A DNA stretch of 63,687 bases from a virus. The stretch lies in the IMG/VR virus record IMGVR_UViG_3300045988_102303; one strand, given 5' to 3'. The notes beneath the pieces were generated by a model. That model was not told the origin of the DNA. It saw nothing but the letters and a program-made list of their open reading frames with translations, and did not search any database. A program made the translations under genes and the position numbers. Below, piece by piece: positions 3,434-28,351 of this stretch (its first letter is position 1; each line of letters opens with the position of its first letter).

Positions 3434-3688
3434 TTATTTTACCCCCTTAACTGGTATATCTCTTATTAAGTCGATAGCTCTATTGATATATTCAATAACA
3501 GTATCAACATCTTTTAATTCTGATTTTGCAATTCCTTGTTTTAATATCCCTTTTCTAGCTTGTTCTAATGTTCTATAATAACCTATATCCTTAAATGTAG
3601 GTGTACCCACTTTTGATATATAATGTTGTCTTAATATATAAGTACCTATAGAGTCAACTAATATTTCATACTCTTTATTTATTCTCAT
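3434..3688 (-). CDS. Hypothetical small protein (84 aa)
   Basis: ATG embedded in CAATGA overlap with upstream stop; the G10 tract serves as its SD. Confidence 0.6.
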   Translation of the reverse strand: MRINKEYEILVDSIGTYILRQHYISKVGTPTFKDIGYYRTLEQARKGILKQGIAKSELKDVDTVIEYINRAIDLIRDIPVKGVK

Positions 3689-5206: not shown

Positions 5207-6008
5207 CTCTTCTTAATCTACAATCTAATACCCATATATCGAACGCCATTTCTTTATTAGACCCATTTACTTTTATTGTATTCAATGCTTTTATCGTACA
5301 ATCAATAATATATAATGCTTTTGGGTCATCAATATGTTTTCGACATATAAATAACATCATATTAAAAAACATGTCTAAAGGAAATCCATCTCCTTTTCCT
5401 GTAAAGTTAATTCTATTTTTTATTTTGAACGCATTACCCGTTGTAACCTTCATGATATTATTAAATACCATTTCAGCGAAATTATAACAATCTTTATAGC
5501 CAACTTCCATATATAATTTTACATCACCTGGAGTTGTTGCTATTTGGCATATATTTGAAGTGTCTTCATTATCACTCATAGCTAACACCTCTATAGCATA
5601 TTTTTTTAAATCTTGATATGAATATTTATCTATTTCAAATATAGTTCCTCTGGATATAATAGTCTCTAATACTGAATTTATATCAGTTATTTCCATTGCT
5701 ATATAACAATTCTTTGGTGGCTCCTCAGTTATCTTCAATAATGCATTTTTAGCGCCTAATGACATTGTAGTGCCTTCAGATATCACAAATAATGTTGGTT
5801 TTTCTAATGCAACTGAATCTTGAATCAACTCCCTAATATTGTCTATTTTATTATCAATATATTGCACTCTTAATTGTTTCTCAGCAGCCATCCTCTTTAT
5901 AAATAAAGATTTCCCAGCACCTCTTGGTGCTGAGATTATAGACAAATGAGGTAAATTAGTCATTTTATTTAACATTTCCAGACAATTAATCATTCCAACT
6001 ATTTGCAT
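5190..6008 (-). CDS. holB: Clamp-loader AAA+ subunit, delta-prime (HolB)-like
   Basis: Walker A-like SAPRGAGKS, LKITEEPPKNCY (sensor/EEPP box), SRG motif; overlaps dnaX stop. Confidence 0.6.
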   Translation of the reverse strand: MQIVGMINCLEMLNKMTNLPHLSIISAPRGAGKSLFIKRMAAEKQLRVQYIDNKIDNIRELIQDSVALEKPTLFVISEGTTMSLGAKNALLKITEEPPKNCYIAMEITDINSVLETIISRGTIFEIDKYSYQDLKKYAIEVLAMSDNEDTSNICQIATTPGDVKLYMEVGYKDCYNFAEMVFNNIMKVTTGNAFKIKNRINFTGKGDGFPLDMFFNMMLFICRKHIDDPKALYIIDCTIKALNTIKVNGSNKEMAFDIWVLDCRLRRGEYYA

Positions 6009-18943: not shown

Positions 18944-19023
18944 TTTGTGTTCCTCCTAGTTTTTAGTTTTTATAAGTTTTTAGGTTTGGGAGATATATTT
19001 TATAACCCTCTCCCTGTTGGGTT
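18944..19023 (-). promoter_or_regulatory. 5' leader of SSB gene: candidate H-type pseudoknot + A-rich repeat (translational operator)
   Basis: Minus strand AACCC-AACA-GGGAGA-GGGTT-ATAAAATATA-TCTCCC, then AAACCTAAAAACTTATAAAAACTAAAAACT-AGGAGG-N8-ATG. Confidence 0.5.
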
Positions 19024-19029
19024 ATGTTT

Positions 19030-19061
19030 ATTATATATTTTTATTACTAAAATTTGTTAAC
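19030..19061 (-). promoter_or_regulatory. Family-1 promoter for SSB
   Basis: Minus strand GTTAACAAATTTTAGTAATAAAAATATATAATAA (TTAACA-N17-TATATAAT). Confidence 0.65.
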
Positions 19062-21678: not shown

Positions 21679-22311
21679 TTATATAGCTTTTAAATCTATT
21701 AATTTTTCTTGCAATGCCTTAACTATCACGTTAGCTCCAGCTCTTGAAATACCTATTTGAGCGGCTACAGCAGATTTTGTTGGTTTACAACCATTTATCA
21801 AAGCATTACAGAATTTTCTTTGGTTATTATTCATATCTATTGATTCTATATAATATTTTAATTCCACTTCGTCAAAATCTTTTGAATCTGTTTGACCCAT
21901 GCAACTATGTTTGTCTTCACTTCCTTCATCGTCATCTCCAACAAAATAATCTGAAAATAATTGTGTATGAGTACATTGATTCAATACTCTCTTTTGCATT
22001 TTTTCCGCTTGAGTTAGATGTCTTAATTCATTATAGATATATGTGCATATTAGACTTGTTAATTTAGCTTTACTTCCTATTTGATAATTTTCTAAGCCTT
22101 TCCATATTTGTTCTAATATAACTGATTCTTTAGTAGCTTCATCTAAGCCTAAGAATTTATTTGATATTGAACTGAATTGTGGATATCCTGTTTCATATAC
22201 AAATGCTATTATAACGTCTTTGTTACCTCTATGATATTCATTAATTAGCTCTTCTGTAGATTTTTCACCTGTAAAATTATCCATTATATTTAATAACATT
22301 TCATGTTTCAT
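21679..22311 (-). CDS. Sigma-like factor / HTH transcription regulator
   Basis: Region-2-like LICTYIYNELRHL and C-terminal HTH SAVAAQIGISRAGANVIVKALQEKL; transcribed from a consensus family-2 promoter. Confidence 0.55.
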   Translation of the reverse strand: MKHEMLLNIMDNFTGEKSTEELINEYHRGNKDVIIAFVYETGYPQFSSISNKFLGLDEATKESVILEQIWKGLENYQIGSKAKLTSLICTYIYNELRHLTQAEKMQKRVLNQCTHTQLFSDYFVGDDDEGSEDKHSCMGQTDSKDFDEVELKYYIESIDMNNNQRKFCNALINGCKPTKSAVAAQIGISRAGANVIVKALQEKLIDLKAI

Positions 22312-23414: not shown

Positions 23415-23447
23415 GTATTATATACAAATTTTATAAATTTTGTTAAC
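23415..23447 (-). promoter_or_regulatory. Family-1 promoter for primase (N16 spacer)
   Basis: Minus strand GTTAACAAAATTTATAAAATTTGTATATAATAC. Confidence 0.6.
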
Positions 23448-23583
23448 AGAAAAAGACTCTAACATTTTAAGTTAGAGTCTTTTCACGGTTATTATTCATA
23501 AATATATTATAAGGAGAAAAGTGTGTAATGGGAATTACTTTCCTTACTTATATTATATATAATTTTATAAAATTTATGTTAAC
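23447..23583 (-). ncRNA. Short promoter-to-terminator unit (candidate sRNA, ~95 nt)
   Basis: Family-1 promoter 23552-23583, then ...CACTTTTCTCCTTATAAT... and terminator AAGACTCTAAC-N7-GTTAGAGTCTT + TTTTCTG (23447-23483); no minus-strand ORF. Confidence 0.45.
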
Positions 23584-24888: not shown

Positions 24889-25598
24889 ATTCTAACCCCC
24901 TTTGGTGTACGTTGAGGCGGATTATTGAATTCAACTATTGTTGAAGTTTCTAATATCCTACTTGCGAGTCTACCACCTACATTACCAACAAACTCATCAT
25001 CTATGACATTTGATGTAAATATATTACACTTATTAGAACTTATTCTACTATTTATAAGTGGAAATAATATTGAATGGTCATAATCACTCAACTTAGTGCA
25101 ACCTATATCGTCCCATATTACAATATCTACTTGTGATATTAATTCTTCTATTTGAAGTAATCTAACATTCTTTTGAGATATAGATGATTTTTTCTGCATT
25201 AAGAAATCATCTACATTTATAAATAAGCCTCTACATTTTGTACCATTGCCATTCCAAATTCTACTAAAATACGCACTCATTAATTTTATACTCCACGTAG
25301 TTTTGCCATTACCATAATATTTACTATAAAGAAATAAATTATGGCCCTGTGATACAAAATCTATTATATTTTCTTTTATATTAGCAAGATATTTATATTT
25401 ATCAATATCCACCCCAGCACTTAACTTTTGATTTTCTGGATATTGTAGTTGTTCTGGAATATTTGCCAAATTTACTAGATAATAATATTGACAATATAAT
25501 GGACATCCACAGTTACAAATATCTTTTTTATAATTATTGCAGCTGCTTTTAAACCAGCAGCCATCTTGTTTAAACTTAAATTCTTTTACATCATACAT
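24885..25598 (-). CDS. DnaI/DnaC-like helicase loader (AAA+) with N-terminal Cys cluster
   Basis: N-terminal CWFKSSCNNYKKDICNCGCPLYC (Zn-type), Walker A YGNGKTTW, Walker B IVIWDDIG. Confidence 0.6.
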   Translation of the reverse strand: MYDVKEFKFKQDGCWFKSSCNNYKKDICNCGCPLYCQYYYLVNLANIPEQLQYPENQKLSAGVDIDKYKYLANIKENIIDFVSQGHNLFLYSKYYGNGKTTWSIKLMSAYFSRIWNGNGTKCRGLFINVDDFLMQKKSSISQKNVRLLQIEELISQVDIVIWDDIGCTKLSDYDHSILFPLINSRISSNKCNIFTSNVIDDEFVGNVGGRLASRILETSTIVEFNNPPQRTPKGVRI

Positions 25599-25617
25599 TG
25601 TAAAACCTCCCTTTATA

Positions 25618-25650
25618 ATTTATATATAAAAAATAGCATAATTTGTTAAT
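25618..25650 (-). promoter_or_regulatory. Family-1-like promoter (ATTAACA-N17-TATATAAAT)
   Basis: Minus strand ATTAACAAATTATGCTATTTTTTATATATAAATT upstream of SD AAAGGGAGG of the loader gene. Confidence 0.6.
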
Positions 25651-25762
25651 AAAAAAAATAACCCTAAAGTGTTTACCAGACACTAAAGGGTTGAAAATAA
25701 TTTAGAAAATACTATTAATGAATTGTATGTATTATATACAATTAATATATATTAATGTTAAC
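25651..25762 (-). ncRNA. Short promoter-to-terminator unit (candidate ~80-nt RNA)
   Basis: Family-1 promoter (TTAACA 25756-25761, TATATAAT 25731-25738), then terminator AACCCTTTAGTG-N8-CACTTTAGGGTT + T8 (25651-25692); no ORF. Confidence 0.4.
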
Positions 25763-25774
25763 TATAAATGTATA

Positions 25775-26422
25775 TTACTTTCTATAAAGTTCTTTATTAA
25801 TTAATGGTCTTACAGGTTTTAGAGGTTGTAAATCTTTTAATATTTTATCTAATCCCCTTGAAGTAAAATGTATATCTTTATGTCTTACTATAAAGATATA
25901 TCTATAATCATAATTTGTTATTGCTCCGTTATATTCTACTACCCAATCATTATCAAATAAATATTGTTTTATATCTTTACGTCTTAAACCAGTAGCACTG
26001 CATACATCATTTATAGTATCACCTTTTATTTTATAATTTAATAATTTGGTTATTTTATGTTGGAGTTGTTCTAATTGTTGTGTAGTTGCTCCCTCATCTA
26101 TATAACCTCCAGTTTTTCTTATTTCTGGTAATACTTCATCCATAACCCATTCTTCAAATTTTTGTGCTGATGGTAATTTACTACTAAATATAAGTCTATA
26201 AACATCTCCTTCAGGTATTAAATTAATTTCAGTTCCATTAACTTTTAACCCGTTACATTTTGTAACGCCTTTACATTTTCTACTTAATACAGTTCTCCAA
26301 CTACCTTCAGCATATCCCAATGATTTTAATACATCATTAGCAACTACATATGGTTTACCTTCAATTTCTATTCCTCTCATTTCTCCAAATTCTTCATTAG
26401 TGAATAGTTGTAATTGTTTCAT
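25775..26422 (-). CDS. Bro-N domain protein (antirepressor-like)
   Basis: FTNEEFGEMRGIEIEGKPYVVANDVLKSLGY ... KFEEWVMDEVLPEIRKTGGY. Confidence 0.75.
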   Translation of the reverse strand: MKQLQLFTNEEFGEMRGIEIEGKPYVVANDVLKSLGYAEGSWRTVLSRKCKGVTKCNGLKVNGTEINLIPEGDVYRLIFSSKLPSAQKFEEWVMDEVLPEIRKTGGYIDEGATTQQLEQLQHKITKLLNYKIKGDTINDVCSATGLRRKDIKQYLFDNDWVVEYNGAITNYDYRYIFIVRHKDIHFTSRGLDKILKDLQPLKPVRPLINKELYRK

Positions 26423-26451
26423 TTTTATTCCTCCCTTTATTATTAATTTAA

Positions 26452-26486
26452 ATATTATATATTAATGTTGGTAATTTTTGTTAACC
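26452..26486 (-). promoter_or_regulatory. Family-1 promoter for Bro-N gene
   Basis: Minus strand GGTTAACAAAAATTACCAACATTAATATATAATATT (TTAACA-N17-TATATAAT). Confidence 0.65.
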
Positions 26487-26494
26487 TCAATTTA

Positions 26495-26576
26495 CACAAA
26501 ATAAAATCCCACCTGATATTTATCAAGTGGGTTAATAAAGGGGAGATTAAATGTGGATTTAAATTATTTATTTGTT
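26495..26576 (-). ncRNA. Candidate sRNA D (promoter 26579-26615)
   Basis: Transcript ...TTTAATCTCCCCTTTATTAA-CCCACTTGATAAATATCAGGTGGG-ATTTTATTTTG: single-stranded C-rich anti-SD motif, then intrinsic terminator; no ORF. Confidence 0.5.
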
Positions 26577-26633
26577 ATGTATATTATATATAATAATTTA
26601 ACTAAAATGTTAACTATTATCAGTAATTTAAAT

Positions 26634-26731
26634 AAAAAAATACTGAGTTGAAGGGGAAGTTTCAAACTCAGTATCCAAACCAAATAAAATAAATTCAAAA
26701 GGGGGACTTACTTTATAGATATAAAGTATTT
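26634..26731 (-). ncRNA. Candidate sRNA C (promoter 26734-26770)
   Basis: GTAAGTCCCCCTTTTGAA..., then terminator ATACTGAGTT-TGAAACTTCCCCTTC-AACTCAGTAT + T7; second C-rich motif sits in the terminator loop. Confidence 0.5.
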
Positions 26732-26770
26732 ACATATATTATATACTATAATACTATAAAAATGTTAACT

Positions 26771-26873
26771 AAAAATTAAAAAGTACCTAATAATAATTAG
26801 GTACTTAATGGAAGGGAGATGTTACAATGAAATAGTTAAATTGTATTGGGTAACTAAATAATAACTTTAATTA
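26771..26873 (-). ncRNA. Candidate sRNA B (promoter 26876-26912)
   Basis: ...CATTGTAACATCTCCCTTCCATT, then terminator AAGTACCTAAT-TATT-ATTAGGTACTT + TTTAATTTTT. Confidence 0.5.
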
Positions 26874-26912
26874 CTATATATTATATACTGATATTATAAT
26901 TTAGTGTTAACC

Positions 26913-27019
26913 ATAAATTACTAAAATTATAAATATTAGTTGAGGTGCGTTAGCACAATAACTCTCCCCAACATTTATTTTTTTTTAATTTTTATTTAAC
27001 TTGTTTATCTTGTTTAACT
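26913..27019 (-). ncRNA. Candidate short transcript A (promoter 27022-27058), no strong terminator
   Basis: A9 run, then GTTGGGG-AGAGTTATT-GTGC-TAAC-GCAC-CCTCAAC nested stem-loop; runs into the next promoter. Confidence 0.35.
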
Positions 27020-27066
27020 TTATATATTATATATTTTTTTGAAGTGTTAATGTTAACCTCAAAATA

Positions 27067-27082
27067 GTTACAATATTGTAAC
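27067..27082. promoter_or_regulatory. Perfect 16-bp palindrome GTTACAATATTGTAAC (candidate operator)
   Basis: Located 10 bp upstream of the -35 of the first promoter of the array. Confidence 0.45.
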
Positions 27083-27099
27083 CTTTTAGTAATAATATA

Positions 27100-27128
27100 C
27101 TCAACCCGTTGATATTACAAGGGTTGAG
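27100..27128 (-). terminator. Stem-loop/terminator after 27142..27576
   Basis: Minus strand CTCAACCCTTG-N7-CAACGGGTTGAG (G.U-containing stem) followed by TATATTATTACT. Confidence 0.45.
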
Positions 27129-27141
27129 CAATTTTAGTAAA

Positions 27142-27576
27142 TTAAATTCTGCGATTAGCCGTATTTATTTGGTTTACATTATTATTTTGATATGAAGTTT
27201 GTTTACTCTTATAATTGGCAATATTAGCATCAAGATTATGCAATAACCAGTCAGTATTTAGTTTAGAAAAATCAAACATACCTTCGTAATTAAGTTGTTT
27301 ATATTTTAGAATCCAAACATCAAGTTTAGCAGCTAATGCTAGATTATTAAATTGATATTTATCTTTTATTTTATTTAGTGTCTTGTTACAATATACAACT
27401 TGAGTTCCTAACATCTTATCTTGATAAACTTTCTCACATTTATAAATAAACCATTTTCTAATTTCATTCATATTAGGTTCTTGAGCATGTTGTAATTTAT
27501 GCTCAACAATTTGGTATTCTCTCTCATTCGGTATAATTTGCTTACTATTTTTCTTGGATTGTAATTCCCTAAACAT
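27142..27576 (-). CDS. Hypothetical protein (144 aa)
   Basis: ORF contiguous with upstream gene (stop/start 1 nt apart); no motif recognised. Confidence 0.6.
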   Translation of the reverse strand: MFRELQSKKNSKQIIPNEREYQIVEHKLQHAQEPNMNEIRKWFIYKCEKVYQDKMLGTQVVYCNKTLNKIKDKYQFNNLALAAKLDVWILKYKQLNYEGMFDFSKLNTDWLLHNLDANIANYKSKQTSYQNNNVNQINTANRRI

Positions 27577-28084: not shown

Positions 28085-28351
28085 TTATTTTTTACACTTT
28101 CCACTATATTTATCTGATATTACTTTCATTTCTCCTTTTACTTTATTTGTTTTAAAAGTTAAGATTTTCTCTATGTCATCTTCGCTCCAATATCTTGCAT
28201 GATTGCCTCCAACTCTAATAAATGGTGGTAATAATACTCTTCCAGTTGTTTCTTCGTACTCATACCATCTAATTAAGGTATTTCTAGTAACATGACATAA
28301 TTCAGCAGTTTCAAAAGCTGTATAATATTTTTTTCCATCAATTATTTTCAT
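28085..28351 (-). CDS. MerR/excisionase-type helix-turn-helix protein
   Basis: KYYTAFETAELCHVTRNTLIRWYEYEE is a typical MerR-like HTH start. Confidence 0.6.
   Translation of the reverse strand: MKIIDGKKYYTAFETAELCHVTRNTLIRWYEYEETTGRVLLPPFIRVGGNHARYWSEDDIEKILTFKTNKVKGEMKVISDKYSGKCKK

Follow-up and report, generated by a model that had tools for sequence, protein, structure and literature searches.

In Firmicutes, small RNAs (sRNAs) with C-rich regions, such as RoxS/RsaE, FsrA and CsfG, use C-rich tracts in unpaired regions or loops to pair with G-rich Shine-Dalgarno (SD) sequences (PMC8216469; PMC6158497, in part). The cia-dependent small RNAs (csRNAs) of streptococci come from several sibling genes per genome, each with an intergenic promoter and a terminator, and present an unpaired anti-SD sequence in transcripts of 51-202 nt (PMC3091779). 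A sponge RNA, RosA, has G-rich regions that bind C-rich sRNAs, and a 7-codon open reading frame (ORF) (PMC8216469). Here, we analysed a 63,687-nt stretch of viral DNA, IMG/VR record IMGVR_UViG_3300045988_102303 (the window), in which an initial annotation had proposed a battery of phage sRNAs at 26495-27058. This array lies in the phage replication region, in a gap between predicted genes, and consists of units A to D, each headed by a copy of the same promoter; a fifth copy, promoter E, precedes a Bro-N antirepressor-like gene. The pattern continues beyond that span with two more units, F and G.

Other known arrangements resemble parts of this locus. The sRNAs DapZ and MicL, of the 3′-untranslated-region (3′-UTR) type, start at a separate promoter, close to where the preceding gene ends, and share the terminator of that gene's mRNA. 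Phage lambda makes 6S RNA, a short RNA, from pR′-tR′, where a promoter stands closely before a terminator, and the T7 promoters A1/A2/A3 are strong and in tandem; to our knowledge, the short RNAs of lambda and T7 are not known to carry conserved seeds. The sRNAs of phages outside prophages are, as far as we know, poorly charted, especially in uncultured Firmicute gut phages. No precedent for a phage anti-SD sRNA cluster appeared in the literature titles and abstracts that we searched.

Like RoxS/RsaE, FsrA and CsfG, units B, C and D combine a sigma-A-type promoter, a predicted RNA of ~100 nt, a Rho-independent terminator and unpaired C-rich tracts. Unlike RoxS/RsaE, they show no sequence or structure homology (no Rfam match), are phage-encoded and stand as several unrelated bodies in tandem; the resemblance is functional only, and the SD complementarity read from the sequence is generic. 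As with the csRNAs, several sibling promoter-plus-terminator units with an unpaired anti-SD occur in one genome. In contrast to them, the promoters read GTTAACA-N17-TATATAAT, with no CiaR promoter repeat (TTTAAG-N5-TTTAAG) in the sequence, the anti-AUG ‘CAU’ is not conserved, and the units are mutually dissimilar and phage-borne. Units F and G begin a few nucleotides past the Bro-N and DnaB stop codons and stop where the mRNA of the preceding gene is predicted to terminate, as DapZ and MicL do, but their promoter lies just behind the coding sequence and not within it. Strong tandem phage promoters, or a promoter-terminator pair ahead of an operon, are shared with lambda pR′ and the T7 early promoters; the difference is that each unit here has a selected body, and that no antiterminator was identified, none having been searched for. 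The units belong neither to RsaE/RoxS nor to the csRNAs and resemble both in their probable mode of action. What appears to be new is that C-rich anti-SD-type sRNAs, known in Firmicutes, would here be phage-borne, with solid comparative support as RNA genes.

Units B, C, D, F and G are candidate small RNA genes

The cluster probably consists of small non-coding RNA genes that are independent of one another and belong to a Firmicute-type gut phage of ~64-66 kb. For B, C, D, G and F as independent small RNA genes under a phage early promoter, we put the probability at about 0.6. Each of the five has its own promoter and a Rho-independent terminator around 50-250 nt, and the units are conserved beyond neutral expectation with structure-preserving changes, the covariation coming from few events. 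Of the proposed sRNA battery, the independent, selected and non-coding units therefore stood, namely B, C and D together with F and G; for the part that has them act on SD sequences, no phage mRNA stood out as a target.

The motif GTTAACA-N17-TATATAAT matched the window 18 times at two mismatches or fewer, against 1.72 expected, and none of 100 shuffles reached 18. Nine copies are exact, all on the minus (coding) strand. Five of these lie inside the gap at the positions first annotated, with the 17-nt spacer, and the fifth indeed stands ahead of the Bro-N gene (Table 1). In L004 and L008, two of the relatives described below, the equivalent of promoter D has the Bro-N gene directly behind it. 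Outside the array, the motif lies ~25-35 nt upstream of the ribosome-binding sites of replication-region genes, and for this reason it behaves as a promoter of early or middle phage genes. A sigma-like gene of the phage itself is in an operon behind a GTTAACA-type promoter, which suggests that the host sigma-A holoenzyme reads the motif. Standard sigma-70 scans missed these promoters because the −10 register is ambiguous, TTAACA being followed by TATATA at 17 nt and by TATAAT at 19 nt.

Three clear terminators had been noted within the array. Those of B and D were recovered by a terminator scan (4 matches against 0.5 expected), and that of C by folding, as a 12-13-bp hairpin with a 10-nt loop. 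The fold z-score was −4.8 against shuffles for B, −4.1 for C and −2.8 for D. The promoter of F follows directly on the Bro-N stop codon, and the promoter of the DnaC-like gene (25650-25619) comes immediately behind the unit; likewise, the promoter of G directly follows the DnaB stop codon and is succeeded, behind the unit, by the primase promoter. Since F and G fill the space between a stop codon and the next promoter, their terminators are common with the upstream mRNAs.

Table 1 Coordinates of the units, promoters and neighbouring signals in the window
Feature	Coordinates	Strand	Description
Unit B	26772..26873	-	Candidate sRNA, ~100 nt; two 5′ hairpins; unpaired tract UCUCCCUUCC (26819-26810); terminator (26806-26781); U-run
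Unit C	26626..26731	-	Candidate sRNA, ~105 nt; 5′ hairpin (26727-26710); unpaired UCCCCCUUUU (26706-26697); terminator (26674-26634) with CUUCCCCUUC (26659-26650) inside its loop
Unit D	26497..26576	-	Candidate sRNA, ~80 nt; unpaired UCUCCCCUUU (26546-26537); terminator (26531-26508); U-run
Unit F	25651..25762	-	Candidate RNA, ~75 nt; promoter (25762-25731); terminator (25692-25660) with loop CUGGUAA
Unit G	23447..23583	-	Candidate RNA, ~100 nt; promoter (23583-23552); CUUUUCUCCUU (23521-23511); terminator (23480-23454)
Unit A body	26912..27019	-	TAAACAAG twice; A-tract; G-rich GGGGAGAG (26969-26962); hairpin GUGC-UAAC-GCAC (26956-26945); U-rich tail
Promoter A	27026..27057	-	Exact motif match; spacer also nearly invariant among relatives
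Promoter B	26880..26911	-	Exact motif match; −35 reads GTTTACA in relatives
Promoter C	26738..26769	-	Exact motif match
Promoter D	26583..26614	-	Exact motif match
Promoter E	26454..26485	-	Exact motif match; drives the Bro-N antirepressor-like gene (26422..25775)
Palindrome	27067..27082		Candidate operator just upstream of promoter A; perfect 16-bp palindrome GTTACAATATTGTAAC; unique in the window, invariant in all relatives
Terminator of the 144-aa gene	27100..27128	-	Intrinsic terminator of the upstream gene; CTCAACCC...GGGTTGAG, read from sequence

The description of the locus as an array of four tandem mini-units holds for the architecture, which is alike from unit to unit. The bodies, in comparison, are not copies beyond the promoter: they have only low-complexity words of 7-12 nt in common, and the promoters are the only repeat families. 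With no homology between bodies, the units are not duplicated paralogues or tandem-repeat siblings, and we dropped that reading.

We also checked the coding potential. The claim that the units contain no minus-strand ORF was not literally correct, as ORFs of 44 amino acids (aa; 26698..26564) and 34 aa (27131..27027) exist, but both lack an SD and are unconserved. The plus-strand ORFs at 26465..26593 and 26553..26651 are not conserved among relatives either, and no conserved ORF was found on either strand of the gap, starts or frames being lost in relatives (hand translations included). The reverse complements of the C-tracts are SD-like, yet only 0-3 codons follow them, and these are unconserved. 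A type I toxin-antitoxin system was rejected, there being no conserved small ORF with an SD. Rfam gave no match at the gathering score in the whole window or at E ≤ 10 in 25500-27300, where only noise appeared (mir-87, CRISPR-DR47), and no tRNA or tmRNA was found.

The units are conserved among relatives

Collecting relatives from IMG/VR and human-gut metagenomes, we obtained 23 distinct versions of the region, the window included (relatives carry labels of L and a number); the 144-aa protein encoded upstream of the array is 67-98% identical. For units A and B together, identity to the window was 78-92%; in the adjacent gene it was 56-79% at codon position 3 and 36-70% at fourfold-degenerate sites. 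The exception was the near-identical L031, where A+B reached 91% and third positions 99%. In pairwise comparisons, codon position 3 averaged an identity of 0.73, and the columns of the palindrome, promoter, unit A and terminator were at or near identity. The C-rich motifs, for which a comparison with related phages had been suggested, are retained and predicted unpaired in B, C and D.

Unit B is present in 22 of the 23 sequences. Column analysis shows that its C-tract varies in length and sequence, while its promoter, 3′ part and terminator are at or near identity. All substitutions in the tract among the 22 sequences are between C and U, so pairing with G would persist. The terminator of B has one compensatory pair, in L038. 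L023 (IMGVR_UViG_3300045988_068681), the most distant member of the clade, lacks B and has an unrelated unit B′ at ~5290-5530, with a promoter of its own, a terminator unlike that of B and a UUACCUCUUAU tract, i.e. the same architecture and motif type on a new sequence.

Mean column identity of unit C is 92% in the 13 distinct sequences that have it, and the unit is portable, being placed after the first antirepressor gene and not after B in 3 of the 13. The more distant L006, L007 and L010 have a diverged homologue, C′, which retains a single-stranded GUCUCCUCUUG and a C-rich loop, AUCUCCCCCUUC. Between C and C′, three consecutive pairs of the terminator stem (3/10) changed on both sides, and 100% still pair. 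Homologues of D were found in L006, L007, L041 and L023, each with promoter E and a Bro-N start region behind it.

Unit F is conserved in relatives, where its loop CUGGUAA (GUGGUAA in L023) sits on three unrelated stems (L006/L007, L023). This 7-nt loop is laid out like an anticodon loop (U33, GGU, A37), and may serve for recognition or as a decoy. Unit G was seen in all nine relatives examined, with a nearly invariant body that includes CUUUUCUCCUU; 3 of the 10 pairs of its terminator changed compensatorily, and the helix stays 100% paired. L007 has one-nucleotide deletions on both sides of a predicted pairing between the G tract and the upstream AGGAAAGU, and this suggests that the two pair with each other.

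In L037, units A, B, C and F are consecutive, with no protein gene before the DnaC-like gene. The stretch from the 144-aa gene to the DnaC-like gene is a cassette hot-spot in relatives L002-L010, L023 and L031-L041. It holds 0-3 different Bro-N/antirepressor genes, a 77-aa gene, or an ORF of 289 or 380 aa, and none of these in L037. The 289- and 380-aa ORFs have the same N-terminus in L032 and L010, and the Bro-N copy of L006 has an in-frame stop.

The C-rich tracts may act as anti-Shine-Dalgarno seeds

The minus strand of the window is C-poor (12.8% C). Searching it for [CT]3CCC[CT]3, we found four loci in 63.7 kb, all four in the array, which makes up 1.1% of the sequence; the four C-rich tracts reported for B, C (C1, and C2 in the terminator loop) and D are present as written. 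Long C-containing pyrimidine tracts in intergenic gaps, terminator arms excluded, comprise B, C1, C2, D, G and three others. One of these three is in a 5′-UTR and two are in a single gap that may reflect a mis-called gene start. The predicted unpaired probability across homologues was 0.91-1.00 for the B tract, 0.63-0.93 for D, 0.55-0.93 for the single-stranded seed of C, 0.6-1.0 for its terminator loop and 0.13-0.40 for G.

We propose the following mechanism. Each unit would be transcribed from a strong sigma-A-like promoter, the same that stands before the replication genes, and a transcript of ~80-105 nt would end at the unit's own intrinsic terminator. B, C and D would present a single-stranded (U)CUCC(C)(C)UUU tract beside or within the terminator hairpin. 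In sequence, this tract is like the 16S rRNA 3′ terminus; G has a similar one, predicted to be partly paired. By pairing with purine-rich SD regions it would block ribosome loading, and CCCC-type seeds would favour GGGG-type SDs. As GGGG-type SDs are almost confined to non-structural genes, the RNAs could damp the translation of early and middle genes as they accumulate, and host mRNAs would be equally possible targets. Most candidate RNAs would expose such anti-SD-like seeds; RNA accumulation, SD pairing and the mRNAs hit are what we infer. That the RNA genes act through SD pairing we consider plausible, at somewhat short of even odds.

Several pairing results are consistent with this mechanism. 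Against the 77 translation-start regions of the phage, the mean seed energy was somewhat better than that of shuffles for B (p = 0.005), C1 (p = 0.025) and G (p = 0.02), an outcome to be expected from any C/U tract. Of the 52 non-structural genes, 18 have an SD of the GGGG type, compared with a single one of the 25 structural genes (Fisher p = 0.004), and this distribution points to two classes of translation signal in one phage. Pairing with the non-structural set was better than with the structural set for C1 (p = 0.003), C2 (p = 0.043) and D (p = 0.053), whereas the tail of 16S rRNA paired with the two sets equally well. The initial annotation had also paired D with 13 of 14 nt of the Bro-N leader, one of them G·U; aligning the two by hand, we obtained 12 Watson-Crick pairs, one G·U and one A·C mismatch. 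Over the wider Bro-N start region, 16 of 19 nt are complementary, and the duplex has −16.5 kcal/mol.

A number of observations weigh against RNA genes of this kind, most of them against the SD mechanism. Since any C/U tract pairs with any SD, SD complementarity is weak evidence, and the comparison of non-structural with structural (early with late) genes was exploratory, with several tests and approximate gene classes. Full-length RNAduplex runs against the 77 translation-start regions gave loop-ridden duplexes with energies no better than those of shuffles. Exact complementarity to all phage transcripts extended to 10-12 nt at the longest, about as by chance, the top seed matches owe their rank to a single poly-G ribosome-binding site, at 3688, and no individual target stands out among the phage mRNAs. 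In L023, a relative of 67% identity, the pairing of D with the Bro-N leader is weaker (−12.0 instead of −16.5 kcal/mol) and does not covary. The anti-AUG ‘CAU’ of B, which lies 7 nt upstream of the anti-SD tract in the B and D of the window, was discarded, as many B homologues have U there and it is not conserved. The tract of G is predicted mostly paired with the upstream 5′ AGGAAAGU, the C2 loop has purine substitutions in 3 relatives, and the 5′ half of B is conserved no better than synonymous sites. Units F and A do not fit the mechanism: F has no C-rich seed, and A has neither a canonical terminator nor such a seed. Finally, DnaB identity among relatives falls from at least 74% directly to at most 44%; the relatives are thus close, and the covariation rests on few events.

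Unit A appears to be a different element

Unit A had been described as lacking a clear terminator, and none of canonical type was found. With no C-rich seed either, its inclusion as an sRNA of the same type as B to D was not justified. Unit A is nonetheless the best-conserved part of the array among relatives: ~150 nt, from the palindrome through the hairpin and including the promoter spacer, are almost invariant. In L007 the hairpin has changed compensatorily to GUCC/GGAC, and in L023 its stem is longer; the G-rich tract is variable. The palindrome is likely the operator of a phage regulator, e.g. the 88-aa HTH_17 protein encoded at 28351..28085. Unit A may be a different element, made of palindrome, promoter, A-rich leader and conserved hairpin, and serving as a DNA control element or origin.

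We also considered whether A acts as a G-rich sponge for B. In the window, A and B form a duplex of −18.3 kcal/mol, and GGGGAGAG with a tiny ORF beside C-rich sRNAs is reminiscent of RosA. This likeness is unsupported in relatives. The tract is degraded (GCGGAAG) in 12 of them, where the pairing is no better than that of shuffles, and in the seven relatives of the GGGGGAGAG lineage (L006-L010, L040, L041) the pairing is likewise no better than that of shuffles. We therefore rejected the sponge.

Alternative explanations

The units could serve in cis, with promoter-terminator pairs as insulators or attenuators that would control the share of transcription passing from each early promoter into the variable Bro-N/antirepressor cassettes and the DnaC-DnaB-primase genes, maybe together with a phage antiterminator, and with the short RNAs as by-products comparable to lambda 6S RNA. 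The layout agrees with this: the next promoter lies within a few nucleotides of each terminator, F and G fit exactly between a stop codon and the next promoter so that their terminators also end upstream mRNAs, and unit A, without a terminator, would read into B. Moreover, D, promoter E and the Bro-N start region move together, and D could pair there in a read-through transcript. A cis role, however, leaves unexplained why a promoter should stand immediately upstream of a terminator, why RNA bodies, loops and C-tracts are conserved on changing stems, and why the tracts are restricted to the array; no antiterminator homologue was noticed, although no search was aimed at one. We regard this explanation as rather unlikely. 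The view of the units as non-functional leftovers, i.e. empty promoter-terminator shells that remained after cassette loss and are kept as homology for cassette exchange, draws on the cassettes, as the region between the 144-aa and DnaC-like genes holds 0-3 different cassette genes and the units flank the cassettes. It is highly improbable: conservation is well above that of synonymous sites, the stems evolve compensatorily, an old gene leader would carry an SD and not its complement, and B and G occur in every relative examined that holds the region, except for B in the most distant, L023. A promoter cluster acting as a sigma-factor sink explains nothing seen that needs it, and we set it aside.

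The end of the array at unit A could instead be a DNA element, either an operator with the main early promoter or a replication origin, which would be compatible with B to D as sRNAs. The near-invariance of ~150 nt, promoter spacer included, speaks for it, as do the repeats. Of the several iterons and the adjacent AT-rich unwinding region expected of a phage origin, unit A offers only two short repeats, a palindrome and the A9 tract; its location near replication genes fits. The 16-bp palindrome, TTAACA twice, TAAACAAG twice and the A9 tract adjoin the helicase-loader, helicase and primase genes and are transcribed through. Tandem promoters beside an AT-rich tract recall the primary origin of T7, and the position equals that of the replication-initiation protein gene of phage phiCTP1, of which the two ORFs next to the array showed no homologue. 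Yet there is no skew inflection, the repeats come in 2 copies only, L007 has a compensatory change of RNA type in the hairpin, and C-rich rather than G-rich transcripts disfavour R-loops. We consider such an element unlikely. Abundant decoy RNAs that titrate an RNA-binding protein (a pyrimidine-tract binder such as S1 or cold-shock proteins, Hfq, an RNase) or a defence sensor, with the F loop as an anticodon-loop mimic, would account for non-homologous bodies that share only a motif type and a hairpin, for conserved loops on variable stems in F and C, and for the absence of a specific mRNA target. Positive support for any protein partner is nil, the motif has an anti-SD sequence for which base pairing is the simplest reading, and a single anticodon-like loop may be chance; we therefore find decoys quite improbable.

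Small RNA genes under a phage early promoter remain our preferred explanation. A bolder form of it would be a dedicated translation-control module, in which at least five unrelated early sRNAs imitate the anti-SD of 16S rRNA with CCCC and mask GGGG-type ribosome-binding sites, turning the phage's own early and middle genes off on schedule or shutting off host translation, with extra hairpin RNAs (the F loop CUGGUAA) as host-defence decoys; this we find doubtful. If the RNAs are expressed, the locus would be a compact, conserved case of a phage steering translation by several anti-SD seeds under early promoters, and phage promoter motif, terminator and unpaired pyrimidine tract would give a search recipe for sRNAs in metagenomic phages. 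If they are not stable RNAs, it remains, next to the replication genes, a clearly defined hot-spot of early promoters and terminators and of cassette exchange.

Phage and genomic setting

The window is a phage-like genome of ~64 kb with ~30% G+C and all genes on the minus strand; skew tracks transcription throughout, with no inflection found. The 719-nt gap (26423-27141) is the longest intergenic stretch between predicted genes in the window. It is bounded by the 144-aa ORF (27576..27142) and the Bro-N gene, both on the minus strand. Upstream of the array are an SNF2-type helicase, a helix-turn-helix protein and two small ORFs without assigned function; downstream are Bro-N, a DnaC-like loader, DnaB, primase, a sigma-factor homologue and ribonucleotide reductase. 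The terminator of the 144-aa gene has an altered stem sequence in relatives L006-L010, and the hairpin is still present.

GenBank phages gave no DNA relative of the region, Bro-N gene fragments excepted. No cultured phage is near: the best-matching ones, Streptococcus phage Dp-1/MS1 and Clostridium phage phiCTP1, show 40-55% protein identity. The same architecture was not seen in phiCTP1, which has small ORFs at those positions, or in relatives with 40-44% DnaB identity, which have tRNA clusters or ordinary genes in the gaps. In L107 (37% DnaB identity), a 711-bp gene-free gap at 1245-1955, upstream of the DnaB region, holds what by eye is a tRNA-gene-like cluster, roughly where this clade has the sRNA-like array. 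Protein searches of genome contigs for a host, with the 144-aa protein and the endolysin as queries, gave no match with either, and the phage is apparently non-integrating, no prophage copy having been found.

A 210-aa ORF after the primase gene (21679-22311, minus strand) is homologous (E = 9e-11) to gp69 of Dp-1, whose annotation is RNA polymerase sigma factor. The structural genes have the GTTAACA promoter in two imperfect copies only, and for this reason the 210-aa protein probably directs late transcription. A 5′-UTR of ~110 nt (window 18944-19061, promoter at 19061) carries GGGAGAGGG and, ~20 nt on, AUCUCCCAAACC directly before the SD; this leader may form an SD-like/anti-SD structure.

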